From an uncultured Gammaproteobacteria bacterium (lineage in GTDB: Bacteria > Patescibacteriota > Patescibacteriia > Magasanikbacterales > JBBTXJ01), in NCBI GenBank assembly GCA_964610305.1, contig CAZSVL010000003.1, forward strand, positions 13,122 to 77,121: 64,000 nucleotides of DNA, given 5' to 3'. How positions within the stretch are numbered: position 1 is the stretch's first letter; the number at the start of each line of letters is the position of its first letter. Positions 428 through 64,000 of the stretch are shown piece after piece. The translations under genes and the position numbers were made by a program. The notes below the pieces were generated by a model. It saw nothing but the letters and a program-made list of their open reading frames with translations. It had not been told where the DNA came from and did not search any database.

Positions 428-1063
428 TCAAGTGGTTATCGTGTCTGTTTCTACCGTGTATCCACGCTCTCTTAGAACGTCAACAAACAAGCGTTGAACC
501 AATCCGGGGGAGCGGTAGACGGCGTCATGAATTGGCATGACCACCTCTGGTTTAATACGCTCCACAAAATCTAGAACGTCGTTTGCCGTTGCCCAGGGAG
601 CGCTTGCGGGGGCGAGTAATATTTTTGGATTAGATTCTAAGACGGGGTGCAGGCAGTCAGATGGATGGAGAACCTGATCATCTAGCAGGAAGCCAATTGA
701 CTGTGGTACCGGGATAGGAAGTTTTTCGTGAGGGCAGTCTATTGCTTTTATATTGATAGCACCGACACTGAAACTCTCGTTTACTGCCACGACGGCCGCT
801 TTAATTTGATGATCACCAAGAATTTTTGCAATAGAATCGTTAGTGTATATTGAGCAGTCCGGATTGACGGACAGGATCTCCTTTATAATTTCTGGCTCTG
901 TGTGATCACGGTGTTCGTGCGTGAGCAGTACGGCATTTATATCAATAAAATCACTCGGCTTTTTTCCGTTTACATCAAACGCAAAAGTCCCCGGATCAAT
1001 GAGGATTCTGGTGCCTTCTTTTTCTATGAGGACGCAGGAGTGTCCTTGGTGTGAGATTTTCAT
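428..1063 (-). CDS. MBL-fold metallo-hydrolase
   Basis: 211-aa ORF with the THEHRDH (HxHxDH) metal-binding motif and further His/Asp residues typical of the metallo-beta-lactamase fold. Confidence 0.8.
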   Translation of the reverse strand: MKISHQGHSCVLIEKEGTRILIDPGTFAFDVNGKKPSDFIDINAVLLTHEHRDHTEPEIIKEILSVNPDCSIYTNDSIAKILGDHQIKAAVVAVNESFSVGAINIKAIDCPHEKLPIPVPQSIGFLLDDQVLHPSDCLHPVLESNPKILLAPASAPWATANDVLDFVERIKPEVVMPIHDAVYRSPGLVQRLFVDVLRERGYTVETDTITT

Positions 1064-1317
1064 TTCGTCGAGTTTGATATTTGATTCTTAAGTAGTTCTT
1101 TCTGCTGACTATTGTGTTTGAGTATATATTCTCGCCGTCTAGCATCTCGCTCATTTTTATATGCTTCGTAATACACGAGAGTGAAGGGTCGAAAGTTGCG
1201 TGTGGCGTTTACCTTGCCGTCTTGGTGAGTCTTAAAACGTTGGCGTAAGTCGTTTGAGTAGCCGATGTAGATCCAATTAAGCCGTTTGTGGCTTTGCAGT
1301 GCGTAGACATAATGCAT
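1060..1317 (-). CDS. GIY-YIG nuclease domain protein
   Basis: N-terminal YVYALQS...IYIGYS pattern (GIY-YIG). The ATG at 1317 is the likely start. The GTG start at 1326 in the ORF track would run into the tRNA-Cys gene. The 4-bp overlap with the upstream ORF suggests an operon. Confidence 0.7.
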   Translation of the reverse strand: MHYVYALQSHKRLNWIYIGYSNDLRQRFKTHQDGKVNATRNFRPFTLVYYEAYKNERDARRREYILKHNSQQKELLKNQISNSTK

Positions 1318-1319
1318 TG

Positions 1320-1393
1320 AGGCCACGGCGGGATTCGCACCCGCGAATAACGGTTTTGCAGACCGTCGTGTTAGACTACTTCACCACGTGGCC
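1320..1393 (-). tRNA. tRNA-Cys (anticodon GCA), discriminator U73
   Basis: Cloverleaf read on the minus strand: acceptor GGCCACG/CGTGGCC, anticodon stem-loop ACGGT-CTGCAAA-ACCGT, T-arm GCGGG-TGCGAAT-CCCGC, U73. Confidence 0.8.
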
Positions 1394-1488
1394 GTGATGA
1401 TAAATTGTGAACGTGTTTTGTCTCCCTTTGGGAGATCCCCCGAAGGGGGACAGACCGTCGTGTTAGACTACTTCACCACGTGGCCGTG
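1359..1488. repeat. 38-bp direct repeats (1359-1396 and 1451-1488) flanking a 34-bp near-palindrome (1419-1452). The repeat unit is the 5' half of tRNA-Cys (positions -3 to 35).
   Basis: Identical string cagaccgtcgtgttagactacttcaccacgtggccgtg occurs twice. The intervening tgtctccctttgggagatcccccgaagggggaca is a twin hairpin. Confidence 0.85.
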
Positions 1489-1519
1489 TTGCGTAGGATA
1501 CTAGAAATTAAGCGTTATG

Positions 1520-2644
1520 TCAACGGGGGCGGGCTCGCCACATCTTGGTTGCATGTCTTAGGGGAACGGGCGTTTGGCGTGCCTTAAAAAGAAGGTCTGA
1601 AATGATGTTGCTCTCGTGCAATTCTTCTAGATCATCAAGCTCATCTGTTTGAAATAGACTAACTGCAGGGACCGGCTGTCCGGCGCCGGTGTAAGAGCAC
1701 TCATTGCAGCCAGGGCAGTGAGCACCTTTTAGTCCAGCAAGATTGCCTGCGGTGTCAAAGGCACTTAAAAAGGCTGGTACGTCTGGGTGTTGGTCTATGG
1801 CCCGGCTGCAGTTTGAGCATCCTCCTACAAAAGGAGTTACTGAGGCTAGGCCTTTAAGAAGAGGGCCGCGTAGCATGGCTTGGATGTTTTGCTGATGGGA
1901 GATGGTATCAATGGGAGTGTTTGATGGCATGCCTAGAACAATCATGGTGCCTGCAAGTGCCGCATGTTCTATGTGTTGCCATAGCTCTGAGCTAAAACGC
2001 ATGGGAGCCAAAATAAGTACAAAAGACGGCCCTGCTGCAACGGTGTTGTTGAGAGTTTCAATTGCAGAGTTTTCATTGAGCAAAAGCACCGCTACTTTCT
2101 GTTTCTTATCTATGTTTTTAATTACATGGCCTACACCATCAAGCGCTGCCAGTGTGGCTCCTGGTGTGGGGGCGCAGAGCATCATTATTCCGCTCCTGTG
2201 ATCCAACATATCTTTTATTTTCCCTCTCTGCTCTTTAGTAAGCAATTTTTTGGGGTCTGAAAGGCTGGAAGGAATATCGCTTATTTCAAAGATATTGTTG
2301 TTTGATCGCAACAAATACGAGCCTTGGGCGTCTTCAACTTTTTTTTGAAAGTGCTTATGTTTGGAGAATCTCTTTATAAAGGCTTTAAAAGAAGAAGCAA
2401 GCGACTCTGGTAATGAGAGTTTGACGTGAGCAGGCGCGTTTCCAACGTGAGCAAGCAAGCAATCACCTTTAATTTCAATAGAAGCGGTAGACCACGGAGT
2501 GCGTGATCTTTGGTGTTGCAGTAGGCTTTGTATAAACGCTTGCATAGCTCTTAGTATATACGCAGGAGTCTGTGGCGGCAATGTGGGGACAGATACTTGA
2601 CGTAAAAAAGCCCTCGTGTTACCATAGTGCCGTTGCGTAAGCAT
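1520..2644 (-). CDS. Hypothetical protein with C-terminal Cys-rich zinc-ribbon-like motifs (GGCSNCS...HCPGCNECS)
   Basis: 374-aa ORF, no family recognised by eye. It is divergent from rpsF. The true start may be internal. Confidence 0.5.
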   Translation of the reverse strand: MLTQRHYGNTRAFLRQVSVPTLPPQTPAYILRAMQAFIQSLLQHQRSRTPWSTASIEIKGDCLLAHVGNAPAHVKLSLPESLASSFKAFIKRFSKHKHFQKKVEDAQGSYLLRSNNNIFEISDIPSSLSDPKKLLTKEQRGKIKDMLDHRSGIMMLCAPTPGATLAALDGVGHVIKNIDKKQKVAVLLLNENSAIETLNNTVAAGPSFVLILAPMRFSSELWQHIEHAALAGTMIVLGMPSNTPIDTISHQQNIQAMLRGPLLKGLASVTPFVGGCSNCSRAIDQHPDVPAFLSAFDTAGNLAGLKGAHCPGCNECSYTGAGQPVPAVSLFQTDELDDLEELHESNIISDLLFKARQTPVPLRHATKMWRARPR

Positions 2645-12872: not shown

Positions 12873-13142
12873 ACTCCCTCCCAAGAGTTCGTTTTCAAAC
12901 AAAAACAGTCACAGATCGTCCTCGGTAGCATGGCTGGCGCTTACCTTTTTTGTATATAGGTTTATATGCGACAGGTGCCCCCTCGGACGATCTCTGACTG
13001 CTTTAAAATTGTTAACGTTCTTTGCAACGACGATATCATTATAATACCGCAACTGCACACTATAGCACACTTTTGTCATTTTGTCAAGAGGAGATGCCTA
13101 TAATTTGGCTTATTTTAGCGCGATTTTGCATTTTGCTTCAGG

Positions 13143-45991: not shown

Positions 45992-46112
45992 AGACTAAAC
46001 TTGTGCATCTAAGTTGTAAAACAGTACAGGCCACTGTACAGATGAGGGCCGACGCTCCGGTCGACCCCCCGACTTCGACTCTGTCGAACGTCGGGGCTAA
46101 GGGCCCAGACTA
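45981..46112. repeat. 17-bp direct repeats (tRNA-Ala positions -6 to 11) flanking a 50-nt twin-hairpin insert (46046-95) plus ~49 nt. The upstream copy is a tRNA-Ala 5' pseudo-fragment with the insert after position 11.
   Basis: gctaagggcccagacta at 45981-45997 and 46096-46112. Between them: GGGCCCTTAGC[insert]TCATCTG... Confidence 0.7.
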
Positions 46113-58598: not shown

Positions 58599-58967
58599 TT
58601 AGTCAATGTCCAGATCATACTCGTCCCAGTAGGGGTCTCCGTCTAGATCTGCACATTCATCAGAGTGCGAAACGGCACAGCCTTCATCGCAGAAGTCCAT
58701 GTACCAATCGCAGCCTTCATCATAGCAGGATCTGCAATCAGCGAGTGCTTTGATGAAGTACTCGTTTTCGTCACAGAGCTCCCAGCTTTCCACTGTAGAG
58801 AGCTTGACCGATCCGAGGGTTGGTAGATCTTCAAAGGCCGCATCAAAGAGACCTTCCACGATCTCGTTTTTTGCGTCAAGGAGCGGCCGACTATTCCGGT
58901 GAAATGACATTGTTTCCCTTTTCAGTGAAAGAAGGACGATTAGCGCAGTATGAAGACAGTATAGCAC
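58599..58967 (-). CDS. Hypothetical acidic Cys-rich protein
   Basis: GC-rich ORF. The start may be the internal MSFHRN. Confidence 0.35.
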   Translation of the reverse strand: MLYCLHTALIVLLSLKRETMSFHRNSRPLLDAKNEIVEGLFDAAFEDLPTLGSVKLSTVESWELCDENEYFIKALADCRSCYDEGCDWYMDFCDEGCAVSHSDECADLDGDPYWDEYDLDID

Positions 58968-59073
58968 ATTTTGTACATTTTGTCAAGGGTAAAATGCCAC
59001 TTTATCTCTTATTTTAGCCAAATTTACGTAATAAAAAAACTGCCGTCTCCCGAAGGATCAGGCAGCGTGCACT

Positions 59074-59943: not shown

Positions 59944-60435
59944 TTACTCTTCAGCGGTGTGCGGATGAGTGCTGGCGGTGGGGCGCCATCGCCATGGCGG
60001 AATTGCATTGTCACGCAAGATTCCGTCCTCATCAACTACGTAATAGGCTCCGCATTCGATGCTTTCTGAATCCACCATGTTTTGCTCGTGCCACATGGGC
60101 GCTACTTCTGGATCAATATGATCGTAGATCATATGACGCCCTTTGAGTGATCTTACATCGTGGCGTCGGTGGAGATCGCTTTTGACATCAGCCCATGGGC
60201 GTCCACATTGACGATCAAGCCAGCGATACACTGGATTGAGCGTATCAGAGAATTCTCGGTAGAACCAGCCACGATGCGGCTTGTCCTGGATGTCTAGATC
60301 ACTAGGATCTGCCGCGCATTGAAGAGTTCTCTTTGCGTTCTGCCGATTGTTGCGGTTGATTGCTCGGCGCTCAAATTTGCTTGCCTTGCTCCGGCCACCC
60401 TCAATGGCTGAGCGAGAGAGTTTTTTTGTTGCCAT
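59944..60435 (-). CDS. Hypothetical protein, paralogous N-terminus with 59074-59817
   Basis: MATKKLSRSAIEGG...RPWADVKSDLHRRHD. Confidence 0.45.
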   Translation of the reverse strand: MATKKLSRSAIEGGRSKASKFERRAINRNNRQNAKRTLQCAADPSDLDIQDKPHRGWFYREFSDTLNPVYRWLDRQCGRPWADVKSDLHRRHDVRSLKGRHMIYDHIDPEVAPMWHEQNMVDSESIECGAYYVVDEDGILRDNAIPPWRWRPTASTHPHTAEE

Positions 60436-60514
60436 GCAACCTCCAATGTAGATTAAATAATCTTCATTGTAGGCCTCCGTGTTTATGCATGATGTGCTCC
60501 TTTATGATGCGAAG

Positions 60515-60670
60515 TGGAAGGGGTAGGATTCGATGAGCAAATGAGTGAGTGTAATAAACATGCTCGCATGCTTATTACCGAGCGAATGCTGCTCGGCCCG
60601 AAGGGCACCTACGAAGACGGTGTCGTCGGATTTACAATCCGGTGCCTTTAACCAACTCGGCCACCCTTCC
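60515..60670 (-). tRNA. tRNA-Tyr (anticodon GTA), type II, carrying a 73-nt structured insertion in the T-loop between nt 54 and 55 (60534-60606)
   Basis: GGAAGGG...CCGGA-TTGTAAA-TCCGA...GTAGG-T[GCCCTTCGGGCCGAGCAGCATTCGCTCGGTAATAAGCATGCGAGCATGTTTATTACACTCACTCATTTGCTCA]TCGAAT-CCTAC-CCCTTCC-A. Confidence 0.6.
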
Positions 60671-60677
60671 ATTAAAG

Positions 60678-60752
60678 TATCCCCAAGGGGATTTGAACCC
60701 CTGCCTCCGGATTGAGAGTCCGGTGTCCTGAGCCTGACTAGACGATGGGGAC
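60678..60752 (-). tRNA. tRNA-Glu (anticodon CTC)
   Basis: GTCCCCATCGTCTAG...CCGGA-CTCTCAA-TCCGG...GGGG-TTCAAAT-CCCC. Confidence 0.75.
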
Positions 60753-60756
60753 GGGG

Positions 60757-60830
60757 CGGTGATGACGAGACTTGAACTCGCAACCTTCGGCCTGACAAGC
60801 CGCTACACTAGCCAATTGTGTTACATCACC
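60757..60830 (-). tRNA. tRNA-Asp (anticodon GTC)
   Basis: Acceptor GGTGATG/CATCACC-G, anticodon loop TTGTCAG. Confidence 0.7.
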
Positions 60831-60868
60831 TGAAGGCTTGCCTGGCGTAGCCGAAGGCGAAGCCTGGG

Positions 60869-60941
60869 TGGAGCCGACAGGAATCGAACCTGCGACATCC
60901 GGCGTGCAAAGCCGGCGCTCTCCCAACTGAGCTACAGCCCC
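60869..60941 (-). tRNA. tRNA-Ala (anticodon TGC), G3-U70; second copy
   Basis: GGGGCTG-TA-GCTC-AGTTGGGA-GAGC-G-CCGGC-TTTGCAC-GCCGG...CGGCTCC-A. Confidence 0.8.
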
Positions 60942-60948
60942 AAATAGG

Positions 60949-61037
60949 AGGAGGGGGTGGGATTTGAACCCACGGGACTCACTGGTGAGCCCAACGGGTT
61001 AGCAACCCGACGCCTTCAGCCACTCGGCCACCCCTCC
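60949..61037 (-). tRNA. tRNA-Ser (anticodon GCT), type II
   Basis: Acceptor GGAGGGG/CCCCTCC, 3-bp D-stem, anticodon loop TTGCTAA, long variable arm GGGCTCACCAGTGAGTCC. Confidence 0.75.
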
Positions 61038-61041
61038 ATAA

Positions 61042-61116
61042 TGCGCCCGGCGGGATTTGAACCCGCAACCACTGGATCCGGAGTCCAGCGCTCTACATCC
61101 ATTGAGCTACGGGCGT
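61042..61116 (-). tRNA. tRNA-Arg (anticodon CCG)
   Basis: ACGCCCG-TA-GCTC-AATGGATGTA-GAGC-G-CTGGA-CTCCGGA-TCCAG...GCGGG-TTCAAAT-CCCGC-CGGGCGC-A (A1-C72 mismatch). Confidence 0.7.
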
Positions 61117-61126
61117 TCAATGCTGA

Positions 61127-61181
61127 GGGCCGACGCTTTGGTCGCCCCCCCGACCCCTTCGGGCGTCGGGGCTACGGACGC
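61127..61181 (-). repeat. 44-nt twin-hairpin element (61127-61170) with an upstream pseudo-acceptor GCGTCCG-TAGC (61171-61181), duplicating the tRNA-Arg(CCG) 5' end
   Basis: RNA sense: GCGTCCG TAGC [CCCGACGCCCGAAGGGGTCGGGGGGGCGACCAAAGCGTCGGCCC] TCAGCATTGA ACGCCCGTAGC... Confidence 0.6.
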
Positions 61182-61186
61182 TTAAG

Positions 61187-61259
61187 TACGCCGTGAGGGA
61201 ATTGAACCCCCGACCCATGGATTAAAAGTCCAGTGCTCTACCTACTGAGCTAACAGCGC
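61187..61259 (-). tRNA. tRNA-Lys (anticodon TTT)
   Basis: GCGCTGT-TA-GCTC-AGTAGGTA-GAGC-A-CTGGA-CTTTTAA-TCCAT...GGGGG-TTCAATT-CCCTC-ACGGCGT-A. Confidence 0.7.
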
Positions 61260-61265
61260 ATAAAA

Positions 61266-61338
61266 GGTGAATGACGGGACTTGAACCCGCGACCTCTGGA
61301 GCCACAATCCAGCGCTCTCCCATCTGAGCTACATTCAC
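61266..61338 (-). tRNA. tRNA-His (anticodon GTG), C73
   Basis: GTGAATG-TA-GCTC...CTGGA-TTGTGGC-TCCAG...GCGGG-TTCAAGT-CCCGT-CATTCAC-C. Confidence 0.75.
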
Positions 61339-61340
61339 AG

Positions 61341-61413
61341 TGCCAGAGACAAGAATTGAACTTGTGACTCAGGGATTTTCAATCCCCAGCTCTACCTACT
61401 GAGCTACCCTGGC
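61341..61413 (-). tRNA. tRNA-Phe (anticodon GAA), intact, A37
   Basis: GCCAGGG-TA-GCTC-AGTAGGTA-GAGC-T-GGGGA-TTGAAAA-TCCCT-GAGTC-ACAAG-TTCAATT-CTTGT-CTCTGGC-A. Confidence 0.8.
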
Positions 61414-61415
61414 AT

Positions 61416-61489
61416 AGAACGGAGGGGGACTCGAACCCCCGAACATCCGATTTGCAGTCGGAGCCCTTAGCCAACTCGGGTACCCGTTC
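61416..61489 (-). tRNA. tRNA-Cys (anticodon GCA), U73; second copy
   Basis: GAACGGG...TCCGA-CTGCAAA-TCGGA-TGTTC-GGGGG-TTCGAGT-CCCCC-TCCGTTC-T. Confidence 0.75.
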
Positions 61490-61496
61490 AGAGATT

Positions 61497-61530
61497 TGTC
61501 TCCCTTCGGGAGATCTCCCGAAGGGAGACA
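61497..61530. repeat. 34-bp perfect palindrome (twin hairpin) upstream of tRNA-Cys; homologous to 1419-1452
   Basis: tgtctcccttcgggagatctcccgaagggagaca. Confidence 0.85.
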
Positions 61531-61567
61531 GTCCTGTACCTAGCCAATTCGGACACTCATCCAGAAG

Positions 61568-61713
61568 TGCGCACACTTGGACTTGATCGGTAAACGAGTG
61601 AGTGGAGTAGGCATGCTTGCATGTCTACTCCCGAGCAAGTGCGACCGAGCCCGAAGGGTACCAAGGACCCTCTGGGTGTAAACCAGATGCTCTCCCAACT
61701 GAGCTATGCACGC
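61568..61713 (-). tRNA. tRNA-Val (anticodon TAC) carrying a 73-nt structured insertion in the T-loop between nt 54 and 55 (61587-61659)
   Basis: GCGTGCA-TA-GCTC-AGTTGGGA-GAGC-A-TCTGG-TTTACAC-CCAGA-GGGTC-CTTGG-T[ACCCTTCGGGCTCGGTCGCACTTGCTCGGGAGTAGACATGCAAGCATGCCTACTCCACTCACTCGTTTACCGA]TCAAGT-CCAAG-TGTGCGC-A. Confidence 0.6.
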
Positions 61714-61717
61714 GCAG

Positions 61718-61799
61718 TAGGTCGGGGGAGACTTGAACTCCCACGTCTAATGACACCAGATTTTGAATCTGGCGCGTCTACCGGTTCCGCCACCGACCC
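61718..61799 (-). tRNA. tRNA-Leu (anticodon CAA), type II
   Basis: GGGTCGG-TG-GCG...CCAGA-TTCAAAA-TCTGG-TGTCATTAGACGT-GGGAG-TTCAAGT-CTCCC-CCGACCT-A. Confidence 0.75.
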
Positions 61800-61871
61800 G
61801 TCTTTGTAATATGCTTCTATCAGAAAGTGAAGATTCACCGTCTGAATAAAAGGGGGAAGAGACTTCCCCGG

Positions 61872-61988
61872 AGCGGTAAGCCGGCCTCGAACCGACGACC
61901 CTCTGCTTGGAAGGCAGACGCTCTACCAACTGAGGACCGACGTTTCAGTCGGTCCCCCGACCCCTTTAGGCGTCGGGGCTATTACCGT
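61872..61988 (-). tRNA. tRNA-Gly (anticodon TCC) copy interrupted in the D-stem (between nt 11 and 12) by a 44-nt twin-hairpin element (61934-61977)
   Basis: ACGGTAA-TA-GC[CCCGACGCCTAAAGGGGTCGGGGGACCGACTGAAACGTCGGTCC]TC-AGTTGGTA-GAGC-G-TCTGC-CTTCCAA-GCAGA-GGGTC-GTCGG-TTCGAGG-CCGGC-TTACCGC-T. Confidence 0.55.
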
Positions 61989-61998
61989 AAATTTAAAG

Positions 61999-62071
61999 AG
62001 CGGATGATCGGGCTTGAACCGATGACTATCTGGTTGGAAGCCAGATGCTCTCCCAACTGAGCTACATCCGC
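61999..62071 (-). tRNA. tRNA-Gly (anticodon TCC), intact array copy
   Basis: GCGGATG-TA-GCTC-AGTTGGGA-GAGC-A-TCTGG-CTTCCAA-CCAGA-TAGTC-ATCGG-TTCAAGC-CCGAT-CATCCGC-T. Confidence 0.8.
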
Positions 62072-62075
62072 AAAG

Positions 62076-62148
62076 TACGCCGTGGAGGATTCGAACCTCC
62101 GACCGATGGATTAAGAGTCCACTGCTCTACCAACTGAGCTAACAGCGC
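62076..62148 (-). tRNA. tRNA-Lys (anticodon CTT)
   Basis: GCGCTGT-TA-GCTC-AGTTGGTA-GAGC-A-GTGGA-CTCTTAA-TCCAT-CGGTC-GGAGG-TTCGAAT-CCTCC-ACGGCGT-A. Confidence 0.75.
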
Positions 62149-62153
62149 AAAAG

Positions 62154-62224
62154 CTCGGGAACTAGGATTCGAACCTAGATGAACTGATCCAGAGTCAGCC
62201 GTCCTGCCGTTAGACGATTCCCGA
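62154..62224 (-). tRNA. tRNA-Gln (anticodon CTG)
   Basis: TCGGGAA-TC-GTCT-AACGGCA-GGAC-G-GCTGA-CTCTGGA-TCAGT...CTAGG-TTCGAAT-CCTAG-TTCCCGA-G. Confidence 0.75.
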
Positions 62225-62234
62225 ATGGTTAGTT

Positions 62235-62309
62235 GTCATTGCGAGCAGTGTAACTGCGAAGCAATCCGGTATGTAAGCAACGGGATTGCTTCGCTTTGCT
62301 TGCAATGAC
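62235..62309. repeat. GTCAT-family long-hairpin repeat (subtype B) inside the tRNA array
   Basis: GTCATTGCGAGCAGTGTAACTGCGAAGCAATCC...GGGATTGCTTCGCTTTGCTTGCAATGAC. Confidence 0.8.
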
Positions 62310-62317
62310 GAGAGAGG

Positions 62318-62410
62318 AAGAGGGACTGGGATTCGAACCCAGGGAGCATCTTTTTAGGACGCCCAACGGTTTTCAAGACCGCCGCCTTCGACCAACTCGG
62401 CCACCCCTCC
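62318..62410 (-). tRNA. tRNA-Ser (anticodon TGA), type II
   Basis: GGAGGGG-TG-GCC...GCGGT-CTTGAAA-ACCGT + long variable arm + CTGGG-TTCGAAT-CCCAG-TCCCTCT-T. Confidence 0.7.
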
Positions 62411-62414
62411 AGAG

Positions 62415-62485
62415 CTCCGGAACTAGGATTCGAACCTAGATAATAAGATCCAAAGTCTTACGTCCTGCCGTTAGACGATTCCGGA
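62415..62485 (-). tRNA. tRNA-Gln (anticodon TTG)
   Basis: TCCGGAA-TC-GTCT...TAAGA-CTTTGGA-TCTTA...CTAGG-TTCGAAT-CCTAG-TTCCGGA-G. Confidence 0.75.
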
Positions 62486-62503
62486 ATAAGGTGGTAAGAA
62501 AGG

Positions 62504-62577
62504 GGCCGGAGATCGGAATCGAACCGATGACCTGCGGGTTACAAATCCGCTGCTCTACCTAACTGAGCTAATCCGGC
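62504..62577 (-). tRNA. tRNA-Thr (anticodon TGT)
   Basis: GCCGGAT-TA-GCTC-AGTTAGGTA-GAGC-A-GCGGA-TTTGTAA-CCCGC-AGGTC-ATCGG-TTCGATT-CCGAT-CTCCGGC-C. Confidence 0.65.
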
Positions 62578-62582
62578 AAAAG

Positions 62583-62656
62583 TACGCCACCTAGGATTTG
62601 AACCTAGGACCTCTGGCTCCGCAAGCCAACGCTCTGTCCAACTGAGCTAGTGGCGC
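62583..62656 (-). tRNA. tRNA-Arg (anticodon GCG)
   Basis: GCGCCAC-TA-GCTC-AGTTGGACA-GAGC-G-TTGGC-TTGCGGA-GCCAG-AGGTC-CTAGG-TTCAAAT-CCTAG-GTGGCGT-A. Confidence 0.65.
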
Positions 62657-62657
62657 G

Positions 62658-62729
62658 CAGGCGGGGGAGGATTTGAACCTCCAGTCCAGGATTTGGAATC
62701 CTGTGGTTTGCCAATTAACCGACCCACCC
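62658..62729 (-). tRNA. tRNA-Trp (anticodon CCA)
   Basis: GGGTGGG-TC-GGTT-AATTGGCA-AACC-A-CAGGA-TTCCAAA-TCCTG-GACTG-GAGG-TTCAAAT-CCTC-CCCGCCT-G. Confidence 0.7.
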
Positions 62730-62733
62730 AAAG

Positions 62734-62807
62734 TCCCCGGAGGTGGAGTTGAACCACCGACCTTTGGCATATCAGACCATTGCTCTAACCAACTGAGCTA
62801 CCCGGGA
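62734..62807 (-). tRNA. tRNA-Ile (anticodon GAT)
   Basis: TCCCGGG-TA-GCTC-AGTTGGTTA-GAGC-A-ATGGT-CTGATAT-GCCAA-AGGTC-GGTGG-TTCAACT-CCACC-TCCGGGG-A. Confidence 0.7.
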
Positions 62808-62813
62808 GTAAAG

Positions 62814-62898
62814 TAGGCGAGGTGGGACTTGAACCCACACGTCATAAGACACTGGAACCTAAACCCAGCGCGTCTGCCAAATGTTCCGCCACTCGCCC
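62814..62898 (-). tRNA. tRNA-Leu (anticodon TAG), type II
   Basis: GGGCGAG-TG-GCGG...CTGGG-TTTAGGT-TCCAG-TGTCTTATGACGT-GTGGG-TTCAAGT-CCCAC-CTCGCCT-A. Confidence 0.75.
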
Positions 62899-62903
62899 TT
62901 ATT

Positions 62904-63086
62904 TTATTTCCACTGTCTTTTGCGCAGCTTTTTCCAGCTTTTGCTACGGCTTGATCGTGACTCGTTCTCAAATGAGTGCGGCTTGCAAAAAGAGCACTTA
63001 CCTGTCTTCTGAGAAATGACACCACGCCGCGCTTGGTTGTAAATCCTGCTTTCCGTTGCGCCGTCCATGATCTTCTTGAAGCTCAT
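62904..63086 (-). CDS. Small basic hypothetical protein (60 aa) embedded in the tRNA array
   Basis: Strong ribosome-binding site AGGAGA, 5 nt, then ATG. MSFKKIMDGATESRIYNQARRGVISQKTGKCSFCKPHSF... has no family assignment. Confidence 0.4.
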   Translation of the reverse strand: MSFKKIMDGATESRIYNQARRGVISQKTGKCSFCKPHSFENESRSSRSKSWKKLRKRQWK

Positions 63087-63103
63087 TTCTATCTCCTAAG
63101 AAG

Positions 63104-63176
63104 TACGCCATGGAGGATTCGAACCTCCGACCAGTGGGTTAGAAATCCACTGCTCTGTCCCCTGAGCTAATGGCGC
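63104..63176 (-). tRNA. tRNA-Arg (anticodon TCT), intact
   Basis: GCGCCAT-TA-GCTC-AGGGGACA-GAGC-A-GTGGA-TTTCTAA-CCCAC-TGGTC-GGAGG-TTCGAAT-CCTCC-ATGGCGT-A. Confidence 0.75.
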
Positions 63177-63247
63177 ATAGTGCTTTCGCAAAGCTGCTGC
63201 TAAATGCCCGGCGCAGGGATCTGACGACCCCTGCGCCTGGGCTTGCG

Positions 63248-63700
63248 TTAGGCGCTCATGATCTGTTCTTGGCTCCAGAGTGAATCTGGTGTAAAGAACT
63301 GATCTGCAGGCAAGCGGCCTTTCTGGTACTGCTGTGCCTCAGGTGAATCCGGCGGGTATTCCGTAAGTGCGGTAAACACGCACGGGCCGGAAGACCAAGG
63401 TGCGGCTTGCACCGCTTCAAAGAGTACACGTCCCAAAGGGAAGGTAAACTTTGAAAGCGTCACAAGTGAATCTGCGCCACATTGCTCTGCTTCATCGCAC
63501 GGCAGCGCAAAGGGATCTAGCCAGCTGTAGCCTCCCTCCTGATGAAGAACCGTGCTCTTGTAGAGCAGTCGGTCCTCCTGAGGCTCTCTTGTGCCGTCCG
63601 GAAAAATCCGGACTACTTGCTCGGTACACCAGTGCACCTGCTCGCCTGCCACGAGCTCTTGGGCTTTTTGGGTAAGCCCGAACCACTGCGTTGCGCGCAT
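63248..63700 (-). CDS. Hypothetical protein (GC-rich)
   Basis: 150-aa ORF with composition atypical for the window. No family recognised. Confidence 0.4.
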   Translation of the reverse strand: MRATQWFGLTQKAQELVAGEQVHWCTEQVVRIFPDGTREPQEDRLLYKSTVLHQEGGYSWLDPFALPCDEAEQCGADSLVTLSKFTFPLGRVLFEAVQAAPWSSGPCVFTALTEYPPDSPEAQQYQKGRLPADQFFTPDSLWSQEQIMSA

Positions 63701-63810
63701 GCGTCCTCCTTTGCTGGCGCTTCTTCTCTGAGAATTTCATGCTAGGTTATCTCTAGCTAACCAACATGAAGGACGCTGCTTTTGTGCTTTGGAGCACAAG
63801 TATCCCCAAC

Positions 63811-63830
63811 CGGATTTGCCCTGCACTACA
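63811..63830 (-). pseudogene. Fragment of the tRNA-Glu 3' end (about 20 bp) followed by a 9-bp-stem hairpin
   Basis: tatccccaaccggatttgcc versus tatccccaaggggatttgaacc of the intact gene. Then the hairpin CACCCTGAAcctttatggTTCAGGGTG. Confidence 0.5.
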
Positions 63831-63891
63831 AGAGTGCGGGGCACCCTGAACCTTTATGGTTCAGGGTGAACCCTGAGAAAGTATCCCCAAG

Positions 63892-63966
63892 GGGATTTGA
63901 ACCCCTGTTGCCAGCTTGAAAGGCTGGCGTCCTAGGCCGTACTAGACGATGGGGACTAAAGTAGCG
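63892..63966 (-). tRNA. tRNA-Glu (anticodon TTC)
   Basis: GTCCCCATCGTCTAGTACGGCCTAGGAC-GCCAGC-CTTTCAA-GCTGGC...GGGG-TTCAAAT-CCCC-TTGGGGAT-A. Confidence 0.75.
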
Positions 63967-63971
63967 GGAAC

Positions 63972-64000
63972 CGGATTTGAACCGGCGACCTCTGGGGTAT
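63972..64000 (-). tRNA. tRNA 3' portion (T-arm GCCGG-TTCAAAT-CCGGT, acceptor TCCCGCT-A). The gene continues beyond the window edge.
   Basis: Reverse complement of the window end reads ...GGTCGCCGGTTCAAATCCGGTTCCCGCTAC. Confidence 0.5.

Follow-up and report, generated by a model that had tools for sequence, protein, structure and literature searches.

We describe a composite tRNA locus in a 64,000-nucleotide (nt) stretch of DNA, hereafter the window (contig CAZSVL010000003.1 of assembly GCA_964610305.1, positions 13,122 to 77,121), from an uncultured bacterium of the Patescibacteriota. At this locus an intact tRNA-Cys gene is preceded by an exact copy of its own 5′ half, broken in the anticodon loop by a 30-base-pair (bp) double-hairpin element (DHE), and is followed by an open reading frame (ORF) for a small GIY-YIG nuclease. 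The upstream piece is a tRNA-Cys copy interrupted by a clean 30-nt insertion and truncated about 10 nt further on. Our best explanation, to which we give a probability of roughly 0.55, is that this half-copy is the leftover of a tRNA-Cys gene split by the DHE, and that the intact tRNA and the GIY-YIG gene are the payload of a mobile module that targets tRNA genes. The explanation draws on direct observation of the anatomy of the locus, its insertion site, a presence/absence polymorphism among relatives, recurrence of the layout in other genomes, resident tRNA genes that are split there, and concerted evolution of the half-copy with the live gene. By analogy with known homing systems, we further infer the part of the GIY-YIG protein as the maker of the break, its cut site, and movement of the module by recombinational repair.

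Results

An interrupted tRNA-Cys copy upstream of the intact gene

The features of the locus are given here in 5′ to 3′ order on the minus strand, on which all of them are read. A slash within a motif marks the point of insertion.

1495-1523, minus strand: promoter-like site TTGACA-17-TATCCT (10/12 match), directly upstream of the 5′ fragment
1451-1488, minus strand: tRNA-Cys 5′ fragment, nt -3 to 35, ending at the wobble G (38/38 against 1359-1396)
1421-1450, unstranded: 30-bp DHE between nt 34 and 35, at the centre of TG/CA (pattern search and folding)
1410-1420, minus strand: stub CAAAAC(a)CGTT, in which tRNA nt 35 to about 44 resume (alignment; exact continuation for 6 nt)
1397-1409, minus strand: AT-rich filler of about 13 nt, alignable with indels to the spacer of relative L001
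1394-1396, minus strand: 3-nt leader CAC of the intact tRNA-Cys (sequence)
1320-1393, minus strand: intact tRNA-Cys(GCA) with the unusual T loop TGCGAAT (ARAGORN; Rfam 63.8 bits)
1060-1317, minus strand: GIY-YIG ORF, 85 residues (Pfam PF01541, E=2e-14)

An earlier reading made from the letters of the window alone (the sequence-only reading) had reported an exact 38-nt copy of tRNA-Cys positions -3 to 35, and the match is indeed 38/38. Its counterpart at 1359-1396 consists of nt 1-35 of the tRNA and 3 leader nt, and a BLAST comparison with the half-copy gives 35/35 identities (E=3.8e-15). The same reading regarded the twin hairpin as the separator between the duplicated half and the gene. This has to be revised: tRNA homology resumes beyond the hairpin, and thus the DHE is an insertion at nt 34/35 of a truncated tRNA-Cys copy, not a spacer between repeats. 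The DHE lies 27 nt from the intact tRNA-Cys, and 54 nt separate the two 38-nt repeats.

The promoter-like sequence is conserved in relatives, where it stands before the fragment in L001 and directly before a plain tRNA-Cys in L004, so that the half-copy in the window sits where the empty allele L004 has its tRNA. A second, weak promoter-like match (GAGACA-16-TATCAT) runs across 1397-1424. Downstream, the ATG of the GIY-YIG ORF begins 2 nt past the tRNA-Cys discriminator, and its stop overlaps the start of a gene for a metallo-beta-lactamase-fold (MBL) protein. The neighbouring genes encode the MBL-fold protein, the GIY-YIG protein, a 374-residue protein of unknown kind and S6.

The 30-nt double hairpin at 1421-1450 is the core of a 34-nt near-palindrome at 1419-1452. 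A pattern search of the 64 kb recovered this near-palindrome and the perfect version at 61497-61530, both of which had been reported before; the DHE pattern has just these 2 matches in the window, even with 3 mismatches allowed, and 0 in 100 shuffles. As single-stranded DNA, copy 1 is predicted to fold into two adjacent 6-bp hairpins (-10.3 kcal/mol, z=-2.6) and copy 2 into one 15-bp hairpin (-18 kcal/mol, z=-6.8). The hairpin insertions in tRNA genes are clean, with no duplication of target bases. Rfam matches in the window are confined to tRNAs, tmRNA and one group I intron; neither the hairpins nor the T-loop inserts described at the end of this paper fall under any Rfam family (gathering threshold for the whole window; E-value for 60400-64000). 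A role of the hairpin as an intrinsic terminator was considered and rejected, as it has no T run and there is no terminator match in 1000-1700.

Filled and empty alleles in relatives

Two related loci, L001 and L004, were reached through homologues of the neighbouring 374-residue protein. In L001 the order is as in the window: promoter, fragment, DHE, stub, spacer, tRNA and then the CA-ATG of the GIY-YIG ORF. Its neighbouring proteins are 60-81% identical to those of the window (MBL 81%, S6 74%; for the 374-residue protein, 59-60%), and the GIY-YIG proteins, at 74% identity, have diverged in step with the flanking genes. Between window and L001 the 5′ half of tRNA-Cys differs by three substitutions, of which two form a compensating D-stem pair and the third makes up for one in the 3′ half. 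The L001 half-copy shows the same three changes, and in both genomes the fragment is 35/35 identical to its own tRNA. The half-copy and tRNA-Cys thus evolve in concert. Since promoter and filler are alignable between window and L001, the module appears to come from their common ancestor, and the two loci count as one event.

L004 presents the other state. Its 374-residue neighbour is 69% identical to that of the window, and its conserved promoter is followed by a plain tRNA-Cys, with no fragment, DHE or GIY-YIG gene. When metagenomes were scanned for the 5′ half of this tRNA type, 11 contigs representing about 7 distinct loci emerged; each has a single uninterrupted tRNA-Cys and lacks the fragment, the hairpin and the nuclease gene. 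The uninterrupted locus that the sequence-only reading had proposed to look for in relatives therefore exists. Because the gene is plain in L004 and in the metagenome loci, the plain gene is the common state and the composite is derived.

That reading had also held that relatives carrying the duplication as a conserved feature without the palindrome would point to an ancient structural leader instead of a mobile-element scar. The first part of this is what L001 shows, since it keeps the duplication as a conserved feature; the palindrome, however, has been kept along with it. With its half-copy evolving in concert with the tRNA, the module is an old one that has been kept up, not a fresh scar.

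A separate peculiarity of this tRNA-Cys type is its T loop (TGCGAAT/TGCAAAT; 1331-1345 in the window), which has G for the near-universal U at position 55. The G is present in L001, L004 and L124-L134 and is conserved in every relative found.

Recurrence of the layout and split resident tRNA genes

The sequence-only reading had pointed to the adjacent GIY-YIG gene, and this link holds up: the arrangement of fragment, hairpin, tRNA and GIY-YIG gene recurs in many unrelated Patescibacteria genomes. We found it at about 20 distinct other loci, at tRNA-Cys, tRNA-Ser and tRNA-Thr genes, some of them reached via the nuclease alone. Those ascertained through the DHE involve Cys, Ser(GCT), Ser(TGA) and Thr (L018, L024, L033, L064, L079, L081, L086, L106, L115, L121 and L030). 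Those ascertained through the nuclease are L135-L138, L139/L140 and L142, the last at tRNA-Cys; L135-L138 and L139/L140 are at tRNA-Ser, and their protein records name Candidatus Wildermuthbacteria.

The layout has two forms. In the window, L001, L024, L033 and L081 the order is fragment, hairpin, stub, filler, tRNA, nuclease. In L018, L064, L079, L086, L106, L115 and L121 it is fragment, hairpin, stub, nuclease, tRNA, and at several of these loci the nuclease ORF extends into the first tRNA nucleotides. The break follows the G of YTG in 15/15 tabulated junctions; in Ser TGA this is position 35/36, whereas in Cys GCA, as in Ser GCT, it is 34/35. The stub measures 0-12 nt. The TGCA of the T loop is a second DHE insertion site in L024 and L081. 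In genomes beyond window and L001, fragment and adjacent tRNA are less alike, with 23-30 of 33-36 nt identical.

At no fewer than five loci (L079, L121, L135, L142 and, at a tRNA-Thr gene, L030), both ends of the interrupted gene can be seen. Outer 5′ and 3′ fragments there are mutually complementary, with acceptor strands that pair (GGTCGCG with CGCGACC, for instance, or GGAGGGG with CCCCTCC). Between them lie a GIY-YIG ORF and an intact tRNA, which is of the resident isotype but a different gene. Double hairpins stand at one or both of the junctions, in the anticodon loop or the T loop. These loci are resident tRNA genes cut by an insertion that brought its own replacement tRNA. Two further loci, L086 and L139, each have two tandem GIY-YIG cassettes, a pattern of serial invasion. 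The DHE loci, 877 kb in all, gave 19 hits to the GIY-YIG domain in 16 ORFs; about two thirds of these are directly beside a tRNA with a DHE.

The DHE is a dispersed repeat

The palindrome is not a feature of tRNA genes alone. A scan of GTDB genomes with a degenerate DHE pattern revealed a repeat dispersed phylum-wide, which is also present inside long open frames; the figures that follow are those among the matches listed. They comprise at least 126 copies in at least 119 stretches from about 75 assemblies (a hand count of accession prefixes), almost all of them Patescibacteria, from many classes and often with several copies per genome. Most copies lie far from tRNAs and GIY-YIG genes. This repeat content and the relatives of the locus also place the source of the window in Patescibacteria. 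The stem covaries at its variable position (T/A 57, C/G 67, T/G 2, C/A 0), so that 124/126 copies have a Watson-Crick pair there, 2 a G-T pair and 0 a C-A mismatch. Variant stems at other loci are likewise paired (TCACCC/GGGTGA; TCTAGC/GCTAGA with TCTGGC/GCCAGA). The flank consensus is itself palindromic, TTTG/CAAA, and the tRNA-Cys anticodon loop, (C)TG/CAAA, fits it well.

Stop-free stretches of at least 150 codons contain 61/126 copies, versus 63% of random windows. At 30 nt the element spans 10 codons, and no stop interrupts the frame in the copies checked. In such frames, scored as stop-free stretches at loci L005-L123, the DHE would lengthen the protein by 10 residues, for example SPYGGSPEGR, LPTGDLPKGD or PLRGISRRET; in L045, L053 and L099 it seems to occupy an orthologous site in one and the same gene.

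In 19/120 copies the flanks contain direct repeats of 10 nt or more, compared with 1.6% of control positions (p=3e-9). These repeats vary in length, and the fixed-length target-site duplication of a miniature transposable element with inverted repeats (MITE) is absent. Nor is placement strictly extragenic, as it would be for a repetitive extragenic palindrome (REP). No cognate transposase (RAYT or TnpA) was seen beside the copies inspected, though no dedicated whole-genome search was made. The pattern had 0 matches in IMG/VR viral contigs, so a phage vector is not indicated. That the palindrome is generated from local sequence during repair was also considered, and rejected because the DHE sequence is conserved across many lineages of the candidate phyla radiation (CPR). 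The DHE behaves as a miniature selfish repeat would. Literature searches on CPR palindromic repeats, and on GIY-YIG with tRNA genes and Patescibacteria, returned no description of it.

The GIY-YIG protein

The GIY-YIG domain occupies residues 4-75 of the 85-residue protein, and Y5, Y17, G19, R27, H31 and E63 (the catalytic Y, Y-x-G, R, H and E) are invariant across 13 homologues. The nearest solved structure is PDB 1zg2, the UPF0213 protein BH0048 (E=3.7e-9, residues 2-74), and the window protein resembles UPF0213 members both in sequence and in being a single domain of ~100 residues. Single-domain GIY-YIG proteins of UPF0213 are grouped as YhbQ and Slx1-type, and we know of no function or genomic association established for the family. 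NCBIfam and PHROG searches with the window protein returned no family.

Judged as a Seg-like homing endonuclease, the protein and its locus give a mixed picture. The 85 residues contain no separate domain for DNA binding or recognition. There is presence/absence polymorphism at one locus, with the module present in the window and L001 and absent from L004 and the 11 metagenome contigs. Co-conversion of foreign flanking sequence is seen in L079, L121, L135, L142 and L030, and not in the window itself.

A 75-residue GIY-YIG subfamily in L143, L144 and L145 is not beside a tRNA. Its ORF lies between inverted repeats of ~15-17 nt (ACCGAGCAC...), perfect in L143 and L144 and imperfect in L145, as if in the middle of a palindrome.

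Other fragment and hairpin sets in the window

The window holds a second tRNA-Cys locus and two comparable sets at genes for other isotypes:

61529-61562, minus strand: diverged Cys-type 5′ fragment GGATGAG...GGACTG, 25/35 identical to tRNA-Cys 2
61499-61528, unstranded: second DHE, a perfect palindrome, after the wobble G (61497-61530 with its TG/CA flanks; pattern search and folding)
61493-61498, minus strand: stub CAAATC, 3 nt before tRNA-Cys 2 (sequence)
61416-61489, minus strand: intact tRNA-Cys(GCA), copy 2 (ARAGORN)
61117-61179, minus strand: tRNA-Arg(CCG) 5′ fragment (GTCCGTAGC) interrupted at nt 11/12 by a type B double hairpin of 44 nt; stub TCAGCATTG
46039-46106, minus strand: tRNA-Ala 5′ fragment (GGGCCCTTAGC) with a 50-nt type B double hairpin and stub TCATCTG

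The second tRNA-Cys had been described as lacking a half-copy. It does have a 5′ fragment, which was overlooked because only 25/35 positions agree with tRNA-Cys 2. The D arm of this fragment is nearly identical to that of tRNA-Cys 2, and it begins 5 nt past the preceding tRNA-Val-like gene, the spacing expected of an array member; Rfam does not call it as a tRNA. There is no second GIY-YIG ORF anywhere in the window, and tRNA-Cys 2 is therefore without a GIY-YIG neighbour.

The likeness that the sequence-only reading saw to the duplications at tRNA-Ala and tRNA-Arg(CCG) is real, but these contain a different hairpin at a different place. This type B double hairpin is 44-50 nt long, reads CCCGAC..GTCGGG and then GGNCGAC..GTCGNCC, and stands between D-stem nt 11 and 12. 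Of its four copies in the window (41130-41173, 46046-46095, 61127-61170 and 61934-61977), two lie in 5′ fragments just upstream of intact tRNA-Ala and tRNA-Arg(CCG) genes, and two lie inside full-length extra tRNA genes (Arg TCT and Gly TCC), from which their removal gives canonical tRNAs. The Ala fragment is upstream of the intact tRNA-Ala(TGC) at 45918-45991, and the Arg fragment directly upstream of the intact tRNA-Arg(CCG) (repeat families D7, D9 and D11). The type B pattern had 0 matches among 123 comparison loci.

Discussion

A proposed self-compensating cassette that targets tRNA genes

The composite locus was first read as the possible footprint of a site-specific element that targets tRNA 5′ regions. 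A mobile-element footprint is what its absence from L004 and the 11 metagenome contigs and the recurrence of the layout point to; the target, however, is the TG/CA of the anticodon loop and not the 5′ region. In the explanation that we favor, the GIY-YIG nuclease would break a plain tRNA gene in or beside its anticodon-loop DNA, and repair would copy the module from a donor that bears it, the tRNA halves providing the homology arms. In the leftover fragment the DHE, lying at the junction, would destroy the target, while the intact tRNA would keep the host viable. Since the module supplies a working tRNA copy, the host could tolerate the splitting of its own gene. Each homing event would draw its left arm from a live tRNA gene; recurrent homing of this sort, or else gene conversion in short tracts between the repeats, which are 92 bp apart, would keep half-copy and live tRNA the same. 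The plain allele would be regenerated if the two 38-nt repeats recombined. All parts of the module would be transcribed from the original tRNA promoter, and tRNA 3′ processing would release the nuclease mRNA nearly leaderless. Expression from the tRNA promoter is suggested by the start of the ORF 2 nt past the tRNA in window and L001, which leaves no room for a ribosome-binding site.

Several findings weigh against this explanation. The module appears to have been inherited vertically in window and L001, which gives no sign of recent mobility in this lineage. The window locus lacks the right-hand 3′ remnant that is present in other genomes. Sets of fragment, hairpin and tRNA occur with no GIY-YIG gene nearby, both in the window (tRNA-Cys 2, tRNA-Ala and tRNA-Arg(CCG)) and elsewhere (L051 and L013), and the enrichment of direct repeats around solitary DHEs suggests that duplication might not need a nuclease. 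In the protein no DNA-binding module can be recognised beside the catalytic domain, and the solved structure closest to it belongs to an uncharacterised UPF0213 protein. The intact tRNA within the module retains the presumed target, which leaves the immunity of the donor unaccounted for. Because most loci were ascertained via the DHE pattern, the association with the DHE is inflated, and loci ascertained via the nuclease are few.

A more specific version, which we put forward tentatively and consider rather doubtful, is that the DHE and the 85-residue UPF0213-type GIY-YIG protein form a two-component mobile system in which the nuclease cuts a few bp outside the hairpin. The nuclease, perhaps as a dimer, would act on the palindrome or on the cruciform extruded from it. 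The DHE would be a portable homing site spread through Patescibacteria genomes, also in frame in proteins, and cassettes of tRNA and nuclease would install themselves where the hairpin had landed in a tRNA loop. Recognition of the palindrome with cuts a few bp outside would account for the short flanking stubs. If true, this would assign a function to a widespread orphan nuclease family for the first time, and tRNA genes of reduced genomes would have a new mode of turnover.

Alternative explanations

The DHE could have made the partial duplication by itself. In this alternative, unlikely but a serious rival, an autonomous repeat acting at TTG/CAA-like sites generates a partial tandem duplication, by insertion or by breakage and slippage at the palindrome, survivors keep one intact tRNA, and the GIY-YIG gene is a bystander, an unrelated passenger that also favors tRNA flanks. 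The dispersal of the DHE, whose copies number at least 126 and mostly lie at a distance from tRNAs and GIY-YIG genes, agrees with this, as do the excess of flanking repeats of at least 10 nt (19/120 against 1.6%), the GIY-less cases (window Cys 2, Ala and Arg(CCG) with their other hairpin, L051 and L013), and the clean hairpin insertions in full-length tRNA copies that show no duplication. It leaves unaccounted for the resident halves that enclose a different tRNA and a nuclease, the tandem GIY-YIG cassettes, and the joint absence of DHE, duplication and GIY-YIG gene from L004 and the metagenome loci; moreover, the right-hand repeat in the window begins 27 nt off the DHE instead of abutting it. 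We think it improbable that the 5′ half and hairpin are instead a conserved functional leader, a selected cis-acting RNA that serves as a processing or decoy structure and competes for the tRNA 3′ strand, tuning tRNA-Cys maturation or nuclease expression. Such a role would fit the retention of the module in L001, where neighbouring proteins are 60-81% identical, the 35/35 identity of each half-copy to its own tRNA despite three substitutions, and the position of the fragment directly behind the sole strong promoter. The transcript is also predicted to fold with the upstream acceptor strand paired to the tRNA 3′ end (-65.5 kcal/mol, z=-3.0), which, together with the age of the module, leaves such a role some probability in this lineage. 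However, the leader is missing from L004, which is comparably close (69%, versus 59-60% for L001), and from all 11 metagenome contigs; the fragment/tRNA mismatches elsewhere (23-30 of 33-36 nt) are incompatible with a pairing function; the hairpin is a generic repeat that also lies in long open frames; and gene conversion between repeats 92 bp apart would explain the identity of the half-copy.

Two further alternatives carry much less weight with us. It is very improbable that the locus encodes a split or intron-containing tRNA assembled at the RNA level, in the manner of archaeal non-canonical introns and split tRNAs, with the upstream 5′ half joined to the downstream 3′ half once the intervening 92 nt, which comprise the hairpin, the stub, the filler and the second 5′ half, had been removed. 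The break is in the anticodon loop, the predicted fold pairs the upstream 5′ strand with the 3′ end, and other tRNA genes of the window hold clean structured inserts whose removal in silico gives perfect tRNAs. Yet a complete canonical tRNA-Cys lies in the same transcript, 27 nt past the hairpin, which makes splicing unnecessary; the fragment is unlike the downstream tRNA in many genomes; and the host is a bacterium (tmRNA; bacterial-type rpoB and rpoC as two genes), in which we know of no splicing endonuclease for such sites. Least credible of all is a remnant of an integrase-island attachment (att) site, or an assembly artefact. Genes for tRNAs are classic integration sites, direct repeats of tRNA segments flank islands, and palindromes with repeats can mislead assemblers. 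Here, though, the repeats are only 54 nt apart, what is repeated is the 5′ half and not the 3′ end, and the neighbouring ORFs that were tested include no integrase. The architecture is also shared by independent assemblies from different organisms (L001), and L135-L138, which have one structure, are four separate assemblies.

Relation to known systems

It is useful to contrast the module with SegB, a protein of about 220 residues and the closest experimentally characterised system, which likewise has a GIY-YIG gene among tRNA genes. SegB of phages T4 and T6 is a free-standing GIY-YIG homing endonuclease that is encoded in a tRNA cluster and cuts tRNA genes at a T-loop motif (PMC2330249; PMC13096335). 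It is inherited together with neighbouring tRNA genes (PMC2330249), it drives recombination-dependent tandem amplification of the tRNA segment, and across phages a statistical association links SegB homologues to tRNAs (PMC13096335). That work indicates that nuclease-driven tRNA turnover can be adaptive, letting phages escape tRNA-cleaving defences (PMC2330249; PMC13096335). SegB is a phage protein with a DNA-binding part, whereas the protein described here is an 85-residue bare domain with no PHROG match, encoded by cellular Patescibacteria. Nor are a split resident tRNA, a replacement tRNA and a conserved double hairpin at the junctions described for SegB. By sequence and architecture the system is outside the Seg family.

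Integrative elements that target tRNA genes use tyrosine or serine integrases, duplicate the tRNA 3′ end, are kilobases long and carry a tRNA segment that restores the gene. The module shares with them self-compensation: the disrupted tRNA is restored and a partial duplicate is left. It differs in having no integrase among the neighbours tested, a 5′ leftover broken in the anticodon loop, and a payload of tRNA plus 85-residue nuclease. It is not an integrase island. UPF0213 proteins such as 1zg2 share the size (about 85-105 residues) and the restriction to a catalytic domain, but a link of this family to tRNA genes and palindromic elements would be new.

Small mobile palindromes have counterparts elsewhere. 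Double-hairpin elements of fungal mitochondria are found also in genes, in the variable regions of rRNA and beside ORFs for mobile endonucleases; near mitochondrial endonuclease ORFs, genes are reported to be duplicated in part. Rickettsia palindromic elements (RPEs) lie inside open frames without breaking them, as the DHE does. The elements of Allomyces mitochondria are, according to Paquin et al. 2000 as cited in PMC3787672, short, GC-rich, dispersed and mobile, with two adjacent stem-loops. Allomyces and other fungal mitochondrial elements resemble the DHE as dispersed multi-copy double stem-loops and differ from it in being organellar and unrelated in sequence, the DHE having a fixed length of 30 nt, a preference for TTG/CAA and repeated insertions in tRNA loops. 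RPEs, REPs and MITEs are likewise small palindromic repeats, in reduced genomes (review PMC10969869); compared with RPEs and MITEs, the DHE is much shorter, has no fixed-length target duplication and is distributed across a phylum-level radiation.

Group I introns of Patescibacteria tRNA genes share both the phylum and the target region with the DHE, as they occupy the anticodon loop, including position 35/36, and they are self-splicing and leave one functional gene (PMC13011429). One is present in this window. The DHE, by contrast, is 30 nt long, gives no Rfam match to a ribozyme and comes with an intact tRNA of its own beside it; with the intact tRNA sitting in the unit, the system is neither a tRNA intron nor a split tRNA. 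The words palindrome, hairpin and duplication are absent from that survey of tRNA introns (PMC13011429). By analogy, the system would work like a free-standing homing-endonuclease cassette coupled to a miniature palindromic repeat. The combination of a bacterial chromosome, a split tRNA with its replacement, a phylum-wide 30-bp hairpin and an orphan single-domain GIY-YIG protein is without description in the literature searched.

The interest of the window locus is mainly in the general phenomenon that it exposes. Odd tRNA loci of Patescibacteria, such as half-tRNAs, tandem partial copies and tRNAs missed by annotation, could be explained as products of selfish DNA, and such loci distort tRNA counts in metagenome-assembled genomes (MAGs). 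The UPF0213-type family would be tied to a concrete candidate substrate, either tRNA anticodon-loop DNA or the 30-bp palindrome. Very small genomes that are usually called streamlined carry a phylum-wide miniature repeat in tRNA loops and long open frames, which parallels Rickettsia and fungal mitochondria. The adaptive value of nuclease-driven tRNA turnover now becomes a question for episymbiotic bacteria as well.

Further observations in the window

Other tRNA genes of the window are unusual in their own ways. On the minus strand at 63800-63880, tRNA-Glu(TTC) is followed by two hairpins and then by 19 nt that repeat the 3′ end of the gene but for two changes (caaatccGGttggggatac), a partial duplication on the 3′ side of the same general kind as the 5′ fragments.

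Three minus-strand genes, tRNA-Val TAC (61568-61713), tRNA-Tyr GTA (60515-60670) and a second tRNA-Arg TCT (40997-41184), carry a structured insert of 70-73 nt in the T loop, after T54. Besides a GCCC-TTCG-GGGC hairpin it contains a closing helix and a long hairpin. Compensatory changes are seen in 12/27 pairs, and two internal strands of 10 nt (..GCTCGG and CTCACTC) are conserved. Removal of the insert in silico gives canonical tRNAs, and the window has no other Val(TAC) or Tyr gene. A covariance model trained on these three inserts recovered no copy beyond them in 784 kb of other Patescibacteria DNA. The insert could be an intron-like element excised at the RNA level, or a DNA parasite in dead genes.

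The group I intron (45617-45837; Rfam 83.8 bits) lies in the anticodon loop of a Phe(GAA)-like tRNA in the region 45560-45860 on the minus strand, and an intact tRNA-Phe(GAA) is present at 61340-61413. Downstream of the intron is a 233-residue ORF (44812-45513, minus strand) with no Pfam, NCBIfam or PHROG match, which is possibly a degenerate homing endonuclease. Long imperfect inverted repeats fill two minus-strand spacers, between tRNA-Pro and tRNA-Leu (44592-44717) and between tRNA-Ser and tRNA-Gln (62225-62315), and may be processing sites or more hairpin elements. A repeat of ~70 nt, reading CTTGACAAAA...TGTGCTATAGT on the minus strand, occurs three times (13057-13126, 41568-41637 and 58956-59025) and is probably a strong extended -10 promoter common to several operons.

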